From a virus (taxonomy: Duplodnaviria > Heunggongvirae > Uroviricota > Caudoviricetes), in IMG/VR virus record IMGVR_UViG_2880361019_000007: a DNA stretch of 46,314 bases; one strand, written 5' to 3'. Shown here one piece after another: positions 3,001 to 9,000 of this stretch. Positions within the stretch are counted from its first letter, which is position 1; each line of letters opens with the position of its first letter. A program made the position numbers.

Positions 3001-6000
3001 TGGCAAATTGAGCGAATCCATCGGTTCAAAATGCGCCGCTCCATCAGGTCAAAATGACACGATGGAAGAGGTCAAAATGAAACGCTCCATTGGTTCAAAA
3101 CGACCCAATGTCATCGGGTCAAAATGGCCTGATGATCTTACAGAGAATACAACAGAGATTACTACAGAGAATAAAAACACTTTTCGTCCGGAAGCTTCGC
3201 AACCGGACCCGCAGACGACTGAACAGGATTTTTTAACCCGGAACTCCGACGCGGTTGTGTTTAGTGCGAAAAAACGCCAGTGGGGTAGCAGGGAGGATTT
3301 GGCGTGTGCGCAGTGGATCTGGGGGCGGATCGTGGGTCTCTACGAACAGGCAGCCAGTGATGATGGCGAGATCATGCGACCAAAAGAGCCTAACTGGACT
3401 GCCTGGGCCAATGACGTGCGCACAATGCGGATGCTGGATGGCAGAAGCCACAGACAAATTTGCGAAATGTTTGGTCGGGTACAGCGAGATCCATTCTGGG
3501 TAAAAAACATCATGAGCCCGTCAAAGCTTCGTGAAAAATGGGATGAACTGGTCATCCGTCTGGGGCGTTCGTCTGTACAGCGTTGTGTGAATCATATTTC
3601 TGAACCGGATACAGAAATTCCGCCTGGTTTCAGGGGATAAGTGTTGATTTCAGGTCATGAGGTAATTTTAAGGGGGACTTGTGGCAAAAGTTTTTACACA
3701 AGAAGAGCGGGAAAAAATTAAAGGGCAGGTGGTGGAACTCGTGCGCCAGAGCGGTCGTGAGACGCTACGGCAACTGGAAGCTAAAACAGGTGCGACAAGA
3801 TATCTGATGAGCATTCTTGCCAGAGAGCTGGTTGCCAGTGGTGATGTATATCACTCTGGCTATGGGTTGTTCCCGTCAGAACAGGCTCGTAAGGACTGGC
3901 AAAACGCCCGCAAAAAACTCTCGAGGGCAAAGGTGAAGAAACCTGTTGTGGTTGATCCGGGCCTTATCTGGACATTACCCGACGGAGAAATACGCCGCTA
4001 CGACAGGCGTATGAACATAATCTGTCGCGAGTGCCGGAAGAGCGAAGTTATGCAGCGTGTATTGGCGTTCTATCAGGGATATGCCTAGAATTGTCACAGG
4101 TAATGAAATTAAAGAGTATTGGTTCGGATATGAATTGACATTTTCGCGGCAAGAGCTAAAAATAGCCTACTTGTTGGTTTTGTGTGAAAAGCAGACATTT
4201 TGAGGCTCAGGATTTGTTATCAAATAAGACCAATACTTATCGATATTAATACGCATTAAATACTGTGCAATACATTATTGCATTTTATTAGATAAGTGAT
4301 ATTTAGGGAAAAGAAAAGTCATAGAAAACAGGCCGCTATTTGTTGTTGGATTTTATAGGCTATATCTAGATTATCTTGCCACTGCGGTCTCTGTTTACCT
4401 AACAGCTTGGGCTTCTTTGCATGCAAGTTTGTAATAACGAGTGTAATCAAACGGAATGTCTATTAATCCTAAACTTAAGCGTATCGCGCTACGCTATCCA
4501 GCGTTATTCCAATATGAGTCCCCCTATATGGCAAGAAAATTAATAATATTCGGCAACGGTCTCGGTATGGCTTTAGATCCTGCTCACTTCTCCTTAGACA
4601 GAGCGTTGGAAGAAATTTGGCATCGCCCCAATTTTTTAAAAGATATCCACAAGCAACTTATCGAGCGTTGTCTTCAGCGGCAAGGTCCACCAGAAGGAGA
4701 ACATGAGTTGGATACCCTTCACCAGGCTGTCACATATTGTAAAGCTCTTGCTCAAATTGGAGAGGGGAACGTGCATTGGCTTACTGAAGATGGACTAAAC
4801 TTCCCCAAAATTACCGCCACTTATATTCACAAAGTTGCAACCAGGTTGCATAATTACGATAAAGGTTTGCCACAAAGATTCGAAAATGCGCTTGTGGAGT
4901 TTGTAAAGAACACACACTCACATATCGCGACATTAAACTATGACAAATTATTATACAATTCATTCATAGATAATGATATATTCAACGGGTATGATGGGGT
5001 TTTAGTTGATGGGATGCTAAGCCACGGATTTTCCTCTGCAGCGCTCGAACGGAAATACAATCGTAGGTTTGGTTATTATTTGCACTTGCATGGTTCACCA
5101 CTATTTATTAATCAGCATGAAAATGGGTGATGCTGCCAACTTACTGATTTAGTGTATGATGGTGTTTTTGAGGTGCTCCAGTGGCTTCTGTTTCTATCAG
5201 CTGTCCCTCCTGTTCAGCTACTGACGGGGTGGTGCGTAACGGCAAAAGCACCGCCGGACATCAGCGCTATCTCTGCTCTCACTGCCGTAAAACATGGCAA
5301 CTGCAGTTCACTTACACCGCTTCTCAACCCGGTACGCACCAGAAAATCATTGATATGGCCATGAATGGCGTTGGATGCCGGGCAACAGCCCGCATTATGG
5401 GCGTTGGCCTCAACACGATTTTACGTCACTTAAAAAACTCAGGCCGCAGTCGGTAACCTCGCGCATACAGCCGGGCAGTGACGTCATCGTCTGCGCGGAA
5501 ATGGACGAACAGTGGGGCTATGTCGGGGCTAAATCGCGCCAGCGCTGGCTGTTTTACGCGTATGACAGGCTCCGGAAGACGGTTGTTGCGCACGTATTCG
5601 GTGAACGCACGATGGCGACGCTGGGGCGTCTTATGAGCCTGCTGTCACCCTTTGACGTGGTGATATGGATGACGGATGGCTGGCCGCTGTATGAATCCCG
5701 CCTGAAGGGAAAGCAGCACGTAATCAGCAAGCGATATACGCAGCGAATTGAGCGGCATAACCTGAATCTGAGGCAGCACCTGGCACGGCTGGGACGGAAG
5801 TCGCTGTCGTTCTCAAAATCGGTGGAGCTGCATGACAAAGTCATCGGGCATTATCTGAACATAAAACACTATCAATAAGTTGGAGTCATTACCTGAAAAT
5901 GTTTTAAAACTTTCACGCTCACAACTTACTCTTGACATAGATGAACCTAGTGAGCATATAGTGTTAACTCATATAAAAAGAAAACCGTCAGTTATAGCAG

Positions 6001-9000
6001 CATCTAATGTTCTTTCTACGTACTGGGATTATTTGCAGTTTGCATTATTTGAATCAGAAGAAATAATATTGTTTGGTTACTCTGGTCTCGATATTCACCT
6101 TAACCTGCTTATTCGACCTTACCTAACCTCTAAGCCTTTAAGAGTAATTGAGTGGAGCGGTGCTGGTGAACAAAACGCTCGTGAGATATATTGGAAAAAC
6201 CAGTTGAGACGGGAAGTTACTGTAATTAGGTTGGATAACATCACTGATTTTATTGATTGGTAGCGCAATGCGAAGTTAAAGAGGCAGCCTCATATTTATC
6301 AGAGCTGGTGTACGTCCAATACAGGAGGTTATCGTGCTGGTTCTCAAATGCGCGCTGGCTATTGCGGCTGTAGTGGCAATTTATTGTCTTGCTATTGTTC
6401 TTATGGATCGCCTTTCTGATTGATTTTATATTGGCGAGGTGACGGGAGTTAAGTAGAATTGCTGCGGGTGCTTGAGGCTATCTGCCTCAGGCATGAACAC
6501 CAAAAGGCAGATAGAGAAAAGCCCCAGTTAACATTACGCGTCCTGCAAGACGCTTAACATTAATCTGAGGCCATATCTATGCGACACATAGAGATTAGCC
6601 TCTTACGGACCAAAAGGTCAAGGAGAAGCAGGCTATGAAGCAGCAAAAGGCGATGTTAATCGCCCTGATCGTCATCTGTTTAACCGTCATAGTGACGGCA
6701 CTGGTAACGAGGAAAGACCTCTGCGAGGTACGAATCCGAACCGGCCAGACGGAGGTCGCTGTCTTCACAGCTTACGAACCTGAGGAGTAAGAGACCCGGC
6801 GGGGGAGTAATCTCCCGCCACCTCTGATGTGCCAGGCATCCTCAACGCACCCGCACTTAACCCGCTTCGGCGGGTTTTTGCATTAGTCTGGTTGACAAAA
6901 ATAGAAAAATGCGAAAATATGTGGTTTACGAATTCTAAAAAAAGCGAAACTTGAAATGAATGAAAATCAGTTAGCTCCTTGTTGGGAATTTCAACCTTAT
7001 CTTGCTGAAAACTATGTTCGCCACTTGTTGGCGGAGATCGCTAACGTACTTGAGCAGCTGTACTATCATAAGCACGCATTAGACAGCAACTGGTCTGAAG
7101 GTGTAAGGGCTTATGATTGGGTCAGAAATCATCTTATTCAAAATGAAGATGCAATTCCTGGCCTTGAGATGATTTCCAAGGGGTTGGACTATGTAGTTGC
7201 TTTAAATAAAGTTCCGCTACAATTTACCAAAGATTGCATTAATAACCCCAAAAAGAAACATCGTCTGCGTCGAAATAAAGTAGAGTATGAGCAGCTCTCA
7301 TTGTTTGGTGATGTTGAGGCTGAGCAAGATATTACATGGCGAGTCATAGCTGAGCCTTTTTTATCCGAAGAGGGCGATGGTGAATTAGAGTCCACACTGC
7401 CTCGTTGGGAGGTAGCTCTTGTTGGATTTAATACTTATGGTGCTCAGATTAGTATAGTTTCTCATCAATCTACAGCATCGATGCCGCTTATGCCTCTTGA
7501 TTATAACACACTCCCTGACGAAGCGGAGATTAATAAGGTGCCTCTTCGTCGGCGTACGAAGGATAAAGATTTGGATGTGAGCAGTGATGGAACATCAGGT
7601 GAATAACTTCACTGAGTATCGGGGTGATAAGCTCAAACTAGCGAGAATGGCTGTTGGGCTTTCTTGTGAAGAGTTAGCCGAAAAAATTGGCAAGACAAAG
7701 CAATTTGTTAGCAAACTGGAGAAGGGGTGCAGGCCATCGGAGCAATGTCTTGAGTTAATATCTTCAGCGCTTATGATTAAGTCCAGTTTTCTTTTTACTG
7801 AACGAAAATACGCTCTGGAAAGTGATGTCTGCCATTTTCGGAGTAAGAAGTCCAGGACTCAAACGCTGACTAATAGTGTATTGGCCAGGGCTGAGATTCT
7901 TAATATTATAATTTCTGCTGTTGAAGGTGAAATCGAATTTCCTGACGTTAACATACCGGAGCACCCAAGGGCTGAATTACTTACTCCGAATGATATTGAG
8001 CGAGTGGCAGAAGATTGTCGCCGTGCCTGGAATTTAGGTCTTGGCCCTATATCATCAATGGTTAAATTGGCGGAGAGTTTAGGGGTAATCGTTGCGCATG
8101 TTACGGGAGTCGATGATCGTGTTGATGCTTTTACTGTTCACAATAACAGGCCTGTTATCATCAGGAACAATGTTAAAAAAAGCATATGTAGATTTCGCTC
8201 TGATTTAGGTCATGAATTAGGGCATTTAGTAATGCATGAGGGCATAACGACAGGTGATAAACTTACGGAATCACAAGCCGATCACTTTTCGAGCGCCTTA
8301 TTAGTTCCCAGGTTATCTTTCATTAAAGAATTTCCACGAATACGAGGTAAGCAATTCGACTGGAATGCTCTGGTTGAATTTAAACTTAGATGGAAAATCA
8401 GCCTTAAAATGTGTATTTATCGAGCCAGCGCATTAGGCTTATTGACCCAGGAACAGGCAAGAACTGGCTATATGCATCTTAATTCCAGAGGGTATACGAG
8501 AGTTGAACCTGGTGATGAACTTTTGCGCCCTGAAGAACCCGGCATGCTGGCCGAGGCGATTGAAATGCTGGATGATGCAACCTGGCTAAGAATTCTTATG
8601 AAAACTGGCTTGAGCCAAGATTTAATTCGTGAGTTGTTCTCCATCAACAGACCTATTACAAATCCAAGAAATATTTTCCAGATTGTTTGAGTATACCCGC
8701 TTCGGCGGGTTTTTTGTTTTTATTTTCAACGTGTTTGAAGTTTTGGACGGTGCCAGAATAGAATCAAAAATACTTAAGTAGCGCGCAGGGAGAAGAGGGA
8801 TGGACCCCGAACAGGGGGAGTGCTATTTATCTGGAAGGATTCTGTTGATGAAAATCGAAGAATTACGTGAAATTTTTAGTGAAGATGGCCTCTATACTGT
8901 GCGCGTTGAGAATGGCGCTATTGTCAGCCACTGCCGTATTAAATGTTTACAGTCTCTACATAGGAAGAGTGGAGCTGCGTTAATTTACTTTGTGGATGGA

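Follow-up and report, generated by a model that had tools for sequence, protein, structure and literature searches.

In E. coli, pathogenic lineages like O55:H7 and O157:H7 included, lambdoid prophages are the most common kind of prophage. The non-essential genes between their replication genes and Q, known from the lambda nin region and from morons, differ from one lambdoid phage to another through recombination at boundaries that are conserved. Hotspots of defence genes inside prophages have been established for P2-like prophages and P4-like satellites (Rousset et al. 2022, PMC9122126), in a work whose main text does not cover lambdoid phages, Qin or hok. For the Qin prophage of E. coli K-12, earlier work described relBE, located beside hokD, as a horizontal acquisition (PMC6379469). 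RosmerTA is an experimentally validated phage-defence toxin–antitoxin (TA) system with a zinc peptidase on the antitoxin and diverse toxins, and it is also found in phages (Millman et al. 2022; Ernits et al. 2023). Here, the IMG/VR record IMGVR_UViG_2880361019_000007 (46,314 nucleotides (nt), the whole of which is called the window below) was analysed for the accessory genes around its hok/sok locus. The window is a lambdoid E. coli prophage of the Qin type, and its nearest complete genomes are O55:H7 strains that carry the same interval at about 99% identity without the insertion sequence IS1.

The interval between the O-like replication gene with DUF977 and the DUF968-RusA-Q block is read as a two-slot accessory hotspot of Qin/mEp460-type lambdoid prophages, with a probability of roughly 0.85. 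In this arrangement a complete hok/sok locus would stand in the middle, with slot A extending from the DUF977 stop codon to the hok promoter and slot B from the hok terminator to rem or to an open reading frame (ORF) of 92 amino acids (aa). Each slot would hold self-contained cassettes with their own regulatory ends. The first-pass annotation had drawn positions 3640-8800 as a single interval of cargo, a picture that has to be replaced by two slots separated by hok/sok. The features concerned are as follows.

2621-3640: O-like replication gene
3681-4088, plus strand: DUF977 gene (LygF in phage records), left flank of slot A; Pfam DUF977 6.1e-29
4089-4455, plus strand: AT-rich spacer (GC 0.34) with the slot A left breakpoint at about 4137-4145
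4456-5125, plus strand: 5' part of the SIR2-fold gene, inactivated (RefSeq start corresponds to 4528); weak DUF4917 and PDC-S21 matches
5126-5893, plus strand: IS1, 768 base pairs (bp), with insA at 5181-5456 and insB at 5375-5878
5902-6263, plus strand: 3' part of the SIR2-fold gene; weak Aga_SIR2 match
6334-6423, plus strand: 29-codon hydrophobic ORF (MLVLKCALAI...), conserved hokD flank; GTG start, strong Shine-Dalgarno sequence
6431-6880, plus strand: hok/sok locus; Hok/Gef, Rfam leader, promoter and terminator matches
6635-6790, plus strand: hokD; Pfam Hok/Gef PF01848 1.2e-23, protein identical to K-12 HokD
6880-8714, plus strand: RosmerTA cassette, 1835-bp insert; 20-bp direct repeat ACCCGCTTCGGCGGGTTTTT at 6860-6879 and 8695-8714
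6956-7606, plus strand: rmrT, toxin; PADLOC RmrT 4.6e-25 over residues 7-209
7587-8690, plus strand: rmrA, antitoxin; PADLOC RmrA 5.6e-105, overlapping rmrT by 20 nt
8848-9108, plus strand: rem homologue, 86 aa at this span, collinear with K-12 rem and its upstream sequence
9175-9453, plus strand: conserved 92-aa ORF (ORF92) directly 5' of ydfU, right flank
9455-10504, plus strand: DUF968/YdfU gene (ydfU in the K-12 annotation), conserved right flank; Pfam DUF968 2.4e-76

The best 80 of more than 591 IMG/VR hits by DUF977 similarity, together with three E. coli loci, were compared with the window by mapping of shared anchor genes (loci are cited below by L numbers). Both DUF977 and hokD were present in 62 loci, in which the anchors DUF977, hokD and ORF92/DUF968 were 80-100% identical. 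Between these anchors, 18 contents of slot A (DUF977 to hokD) and 6 contents of slot B (hokD to ydfU) were found in many combinations, figures to be taken as counts rather than frequencies. Content and order were thus clearly not conserved in most relatives, and the comparison, along the lines that the first-pass annotation had proposed, yielded both the conserved flanks, on the DUF977 and the DUF968/rusA side, and a catalogue of alternative cargo.

Slot A contained, besides the SIR2 gene, QueH (32 of the 62 loci; Pfam 1.1e-65, e.g. L007), a PD-Lambda-2-like pair (PD-Lambda-2_C 1e-41), an ABC-3C/PDC-M68 system, an AbiU/AIPR-like protein (AbiU-like 7e-24), Menshen NsnABC (expectation values (E) 1e-89 to 1e-123), SMEK with a methyltransferase and a membrane protein, a BstA-like protein (3e-21), NA37 with a membrane protein, a 484-aa protein without family, and several groups of small phage genes of the ordinary sort. 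Slot B was empty (72 bp) or held rem only, RosmerTA with rem, a lipoprotein, a Fic/Doc pair, or a type II restriction-modification (R-M) system that also replaced the hok coding region (restriction enzyme 1e-125). The two slots vary independently: QueH occurred with five different slot B states, and a 100% identical RosmerTA cassette stood beside SIR2, QueH, the 484-aa protein or SMEK with its methyltransferase. Loci without hokD carried IetAS or another type II R-M system. Three sequenced phages, mEp460, Tritos and HannyBb, showed the same two-slot layout with intact cargo in their genomes; mEp460 carries PD-T7-1 (4e-157), and Tritos carries an FRG-domain PDC-S15 protein and a different RosmerTA variant. 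Altogether, at least 12 distinct PADLOC-recognised systems were counted across the two slots. The resemblance to defence and TA hotspots suggested by the first-pass annotation therefore holds, much of the cargo matching known or candidate defence and TA systems. A scan of one genome per species returned only Escherichia, Shigella and contaminated contigs of metagenome-assembled genomes, a single-protein query that reaches close relatives only.

Some of the alternative occupants deserve a separate remark. QueH is an epoxyqueuosine reductase, an odd gene for an E. coli prophage, and its insertion left only the final seven codons of the 29-codon ORF in QueH-type loci. IetAS (AAA ATPase and subtilase, E 1e-143 and 8e-300) lies at 4661-8054 of L034 and in at least 10 more IMG/VR loci, where it fills all the space from DUF977 to the 92-aa ORF and no hokD is present. 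In L007-L012, L033, L055, L069 and L071, a type II R-M system (C5 methyltransferase and restriction enzyme) replaces the hokD coding region, and of the hok locus nothing but the promoter and the initial ~150 nt is kept; this remnant promoter may now drive or regulate the R-M genes.

The boundaries of slot A were located by the loss and return of homology. Loci with other cargo match the window as far as 4137-4145 and again from 6281 onward. The left break lies about 50 bp past the DUF977 stop codon, at a TTGACA-containing motif common to stand-alone cargos, whereas phage-type cargos are translationally coupled to a longer DUF977 through overlapping GTGA junctions. In other loci the right-hand breaks form a nested series in the 170 bp that precede the hok transcript start, and some of them leave the -10 region only. 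The 135-aa ORF listed among the accessory units by the first-pass annotation is present at 3681-4088; it is the DUF977 gene, which adjoins the replication gene in every compared locus and belongs to the conserved backbone. Likewise, the 29-aa hydrophobic peptide exists at 6334-6423 and is counted with the conserved hokD flank rather than as cargo, because homology to other-cargo loci already resumes at 6281.

The boundaries of slot B are marked by a duplicated terminator. The RosmerTA insert is placed exactly at the hokD terminator, and its direct repeat is the hairpin of that terminator. Matching empty sites with a single terminator copy were found in K-12, L021, L075, E. ruysiae L094 and L096. 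The HTH-peptidase two-gene module recognised in the first-pass annotation (HTH, helix-turn-helix) is indeed present and, from its profile matches, is assigned to RosmerTA. RmrA combines an N-terminal HTH_3 domain (Pfam 5.2e-7) with a Peptidase_M78 (ImmA/IrrE) domain (6.5e-11) that carries HELGH at residue 209, and the cassette in slot B is apparently intact. It occurs in 237 of 5,426 complete E. coli genomes. The RmrT subtype forms just 21 clusters among 5.8 billion proteins and is confined to Enterobacterales. A mechanism was also sought from structure and none was assigned: the AlphaFold model of RmrT, built with 16 homologues, reached a mean predicted local distance difference test score (pLDDT) of only 62, and in a Foldseek comparison of this model with PDB structures no match fell below E 0.03.

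An 80%-identical RosmerTA cassette was located at 4068-5802 of L089 (E. coli KL53), in a lambda O/P-type prophage without hokD, between ead/DUF550 genes and DinI/nin genes; the equivalent region is therefore used in a different lambdoid lineage. The 69 bp 5' of rmrT are about 91% conserved in this cassette otherwise 80% identical, as counted from the compared sequences. The RosmerTA cassettes of Tritos and KL53 share the upstream region and also end in the ACCCGC-loop-GCGGGTTTTT hairpin. This hairpin, in the form (A)CCCGC-loop-GCGGGTTTTT, recurs at 6861, 8696 and 11792 of the window, at 5626, 7491 and 9791 of L085, and at 5821 and 5967 of L089; it closes hokD, RosmerTA cassettes and the Q region. 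It may act as a microhomology in cassette exchange.

Between the slots, the first-pass call of hokD was corroborated, and from its sequence elements the hok/sok locus of the window appears complete. The sok/hok leader (Rfam RF01794, 6466-6637) scored 107.5 bits against a gathering score of 59 over the full model length. A promoter-like site ends at 6459, the terminator lies at 6859-6876, and a mok-like ORF of 19 codons (6579-6638) overlaps the hok start codon through its terminal ATGA. When 6466-6880, a putative 415-nt mRNA, is folded at minimum energy, nt 1-12 are predicted to pair with nt 375-387, the classical fold-back (tac/fbi). No convincing Sok promoter was identified on the minus strand. 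In K-12, everything upstream of the ribosome-binding region of hokD, including the promoter and the sok/mok leader, was lost to the relBE insertion, which agrees with earlier literature. The K-12 order dicC-ydfX-ydfW-[flxA ydfV relBE]-hokD-rem-ydfU-Q, with rem only in slot B, bears out the match to the relBE-hokD slot of Qin that the first-pass annotation had drawn. Furthermore, strain KSC1031 carries SIR2, an IS element, ydfW-flxA-ydfV-relBE, hokD and rem in a row, and this stacking of SIR2 and relBE in one slot links the window directly to the classical relBE-hokD arrangement.

The 29-codon ORF just upstream has AGGAGG 6 nt 5' of its GTG codon and is found in frame, with synonymous or conservative changes, in L002, L003, L021, L041, L045, L060 and L074; public records name it merely 'hypothetical protein'. 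An unrelated hydrophobic ORF of 27 codons (MTWPEAF...CRWG) occupies the same position in L016, L022, L031, L037, L038 and L078. Both lie just 5' of the hok promoter and both have strong ribosome-binding sites. A second type I TA pair involving the 29-aa ORF was considered on account of a promoter-like match on the minus strand (6452-6423); its -10 element is poorly conserved elsewhere and the idea was left as speculation.

The window's slot A holds the gene that the first-pass annotation had called SIR2-like and split by IS1, in agreement with the present analysis. IS1 (23-nt inverted ends, 78% complementary; insA and insB ORFs of 91 and 167 aa) is bracketed by an 8-bp target duplication, TGAAAATG, at 5118-5125 and 5894-5901, and in the alignment with the intact O55:H7 locus the two blocks share precisely these 8 bp. 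Removal of IS1 and one duplicate, which joins 4456-5125 to 5902-6263, restored an uninterrupted ORF of 343 codons, at least 99% identical to and collinear with the intact O55:H7 allele. In the window the ORF is not intact, being interrupted after codon 223 of 343, just beyond an HLHGSPLF motif. The IS1 copy is 98-99.7% identical to IS1 copies in phage records. The SIR2 gene was found in 46 of the 5,426 complete E. coli genomes and is intact in all of them, the IS1-disrupted allele occurring in none of the 46; the insertion is therefore recent and lineage-specific. E. albertii was considered as the source of the IS1 allele and was ruled out, the SIR2 gene there being intact.

The restored SIR2 protein scored 26.1 bits against Pfam SIR2_2 (threshold 24.5). 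A protein sequence search of the PDB gave no match at E ≤ 1. Its structural model (pLDDT 87) had as best Foldseek match the SIR2 subunit of the SIR2-HerA/Nezha antiphage complex (E 4e-11, template modelling score ~0.6), followed by further fold matches to FAM118B, DSR2 and SPARSA. Among 49 homologues, which span many gammaproteobacterial genera, the LNYD and HLHGS residues with N161 and H212 are invariant and GNG (G33-N34-G35) is nearly so; by analogy, N161 and H212 would be catalytic residues and GNG the glycine motif that binds nicotinamide adenine dinucleotide (NAD). No partner gene was found alongside SIR2 in the cassette. Since the gene is standalone and its matches to defence models are weak, it is called a probable, not proven, NAD-degrading defence effector, dead in the window.

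The AT-rich spacers reported by the first-pass annotation were borne out by a GC content of 0.34 at 4089-4455 and 0.30 at 6886-6955, compared with 0.515 for the whole window; GC amounts to ~0.38 across the SIR2 gene, 0.42 in rmrTA and 0.48-0.55 in the flanks. The left spacer contains a promoter-like site at 4135-4163 (TTGACA-17-AAAAAT), and its junction motif is common to defence-type cargos. The further claim that the units have their own promoters and terminators stood in part. Two canonical terminators, each a hairpin with a T-run, lie just 3' of hokD (6859-6876) and just 3' of RmrA (8695-8710), while terminator-like sites overall are not enriched (8 versus 5.9 ± 2.3 expected) and the 18 promoter-like matches (10.6 ± 2.9 expected) are consensus matches only.

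The most economical reading of these boundaries, we infer, is recombination at conserved flanks and short regulatory sequences. Cassettes would be swapped by homologous recombination, probably of the relaxed kind catalysed by phage recombinases, with crossovers falling in the conserved flanks and in brief regulatory stretches common to different loci, among them the hok promoter and the terminator hairpin ACCCGC-loop-GCGGG. Such relaxed exchange, carried out by Rad52-like phage recombinases, is documented for temperate phages and the defective prophages with which they recombine (PMC3945230). While the prophage is repressed, the cassettes may still be expressed and favour the lysogen, either because they block other phages or through addiction. 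In slot A of the window, a standalone SIR2-fold gene, a probable NAD-degrading effector, has been killed by a recent IS1 insertion; in slot B, the HTH/zinc-peptidase protein RmrA would restrain RmrT until infection releases the toxin.

Other explanations of the variability were weighed against the two-slot hotspot. A fixed conserved gene block, with the same content and order as the norm in related prophages, would account for the eight O55:H7 and related complete genomes that share the whole arrangement except IS1; this idea is refuted by the 18 and 6 alternative contents among the 62 anchor-sharing loci and by the finding that coverage of the interval reaches 80% or more in only 8 of the 5,426 complete E. 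coli genomes. It is also most improbable that the interval is prophage-decay debris, produced by random insertions and deletions in a defective prophage without a functional exchange site. Signs of decay do exist: IS1 sits in the SIR2 gene here, IS481 and ISEsa1 occur in the same slot of other strains, rusA and DUF968 are frameshifted in relatives, a methyltransferase is split at 12284-13333, and K-12 Qin itself is defective. Nevertheless, the boundaries are precise and recurrent, the layout recurs with intact cargo in the genomes of mEp460, Tritos and HannyBb, and cargo ORFs are intact, including SIR2 in 46 of 46 complete genomes that carry it.

Ordinary lambdoid mosaicism, in which the variable early-right region (nin-like, moron) would carry defence genes as incidental passengers, is the more serious competitor and is nonetheless judged unlikely. 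About half of the slot A types are small phage genes coupled to DUF977 through GTGA, with DUF551, DUF4406, Mom-like and methyltransferase domains. Against such mosaicism, at least 12 PADLOC-recognised systems share the same two slots, whereas none of the five flanking backbone proteins scanned had a PADLOC match, and the defence-type cargos are stand-alone with a distinct AT-rich junction motif, unlike the coupled phage genes. Several observations weigh on the other side and temper the hotspot reading. QueH is the commonest slot A content and other cargos are ordinary small phage genes, and the site is therefore not exclusively for defence. A 2025 preprint found no overall enrichment of hok genes in the 20 kb around known defence systems (12% versus 9.4% expected), a lack of general association that also favours mosaicism; a survey of Hok found enrichment in prophages, and the prophage hokD subset is a local exception to the general pattern. 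In addition, the 80-locus sample includes redundant isolates, the promoters of the interval are consensus matches, the SIR2 protein matched PADLOC models weakly (Aga_SIR2 3.9e-6, PDC-S21 8e-6, SIR2 6e-5), and no evidence was found that this SIR2 family has been validated as a defence gene. To our knowledge, a standalone SIR2 protein of ~320 aa is not a validated defence system.

The two-slot hotspot leads to a more specific proposal, that hok/sok serves as a fixed point with a site of cassette exchange on either side, the swaps taking place at the hok promoter and at the ACCCGC-loop-GCGGGTTTTT hairpin. We put this forward tentatively and with some doubt. If true, unassigned occupants could include new anti-phage or addiction functions, among them the 29-aa membrane peptide and its 27-aa counterpart, the ~320-aa SIR2 protein, the 484-aa protein, NA37 with its membrane protein, and SMEK with its methyltransferase and membrane protein; the site could then be used for guilt-by-location discovery, as P2/P4 hotspots have been. 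The terminator duplication around RosmerTA and the matching empty sites provide a concrete test case for the exchange mechanism, and the IS1-killed SIR2 beside an intact RosmerTA illustrates cargo turnover within one lineage. In practice, the flanks DUF977, hok/sok and DUF968 offer a simple handle for predicting the phage-resistance profile of a strain, for finding new defence genes by location and for studying cassette movement between phages.

The remaining backbone agrees with a Qin-type prophage. One further feature lies at the left end.

360-411, minus strand: match to the small RNA (sRNA) DicF, 76.7 bits

At the level of sequence similarity, this match confirms a Qin-type immunity and dicB region in the window; a weak STnc100-like match below threshold adjoins it at 153-362 on the minus strand. 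A dicA-like repressor, cro, a YdaT-family gene, the O-like replication gene and DUF977 follow in this order. On the right, the rem homologue is a 102-aa ORF just past the end of the 3640-8800 interval, for which Pfam and PADLOC scans gave no family. The 92-aa ORF, likewise without match in a family search, shows 83-100% nucleotide identity across 48 loci with differing cargo. Downstream of DUF968/YdfU come rusA and a Q-type antiterminator. Beyond Q, a DNA methyltransferase is split into ORFs of 113 and 192 aa (12284-12625 and 12755-13333); relatives have a single methyltransferase gene of ~352 aa, and the split version is probably a pseudogene. Of three tRNA genes, the first, Met-CAT, is probably read as Ile, and the other two are Arg-TCG and Arg-TCT; together with a match to the STnc100 sRNA (132 bits) they lie at 13383-13632, 13709-13898 and 13924-16373, an arrangement like that of Shiga toxin (Stx) phages. 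No stx genes stand ahead of the 622-aa esterase-like ORF, and a 111-aa ORF on the minus strand occupies that place.

The individual parts are of known kinds (hok/sok, RosmerTA, SIR2-fold effectors, IS1), and the site itself does not seem to have been catalogued; no paper describing the lambdoid slot was found in a literature coverage that is incomplete and does not exclude a prior description. We regard the site as a useful discovery handle that is not surprising in principle. Its nearest likeness is to the hotspots of P2-like prophages and P4-like satellites, with which it shares a fixed site between conserved phage genes, many alternative anti-phage systems in one species, and AT-rich, self-contained cargo. 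Unlike them, it belongs to the Qin/mEp460-type lambdoid lineage, has two adjacent slots split by a conserved hok/sok, and devotes a large share of its cargo to non-defence genes (QueH, small phage genes). With the K-12 Qin relBE-hokD region it shares the backbone order dicA/dicC, replication remnants, cargo, hokD, rem, ydfU and Q; in contrast to K-12, the hok/sok locus of the window appears complete, SIR2::IS1 replaces relBE as cargo, and RosmerTA lies between hokD and rem. Like the lambda nin region and morons, the interval carries variable non-essential genes between the replication genes and Q, but many of its units are stand-alone and match defence or TA systems instead of small delayed-early genes.

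At the level of the cargo, the SIR2 protein resembles the defence NADases SIR2-HerA/Nezha, DSR2, ThsA and SPARSA in its predicted SIR2 Rossmann fold with conserved Asn and His. It differs from them in its length of ~320 aa and its standalone nature, without a HerA, pAgo, SLOG or sensor partner in the cassette; its identity to solved SIR2 defence proteins is only 13-18%, and the copy in the window is inactivated by IS1. The slot B cassette follows the RosmerTA plan, with the toxin gene first and an overlapping antitoxin that has HTH and M78 zinc peptidase domains. The RmrT of the window has no predicted transmembrane segment or known fold, and its action may differ from that of the membrane-depolarising RmrT of Gordonia phage Kita.

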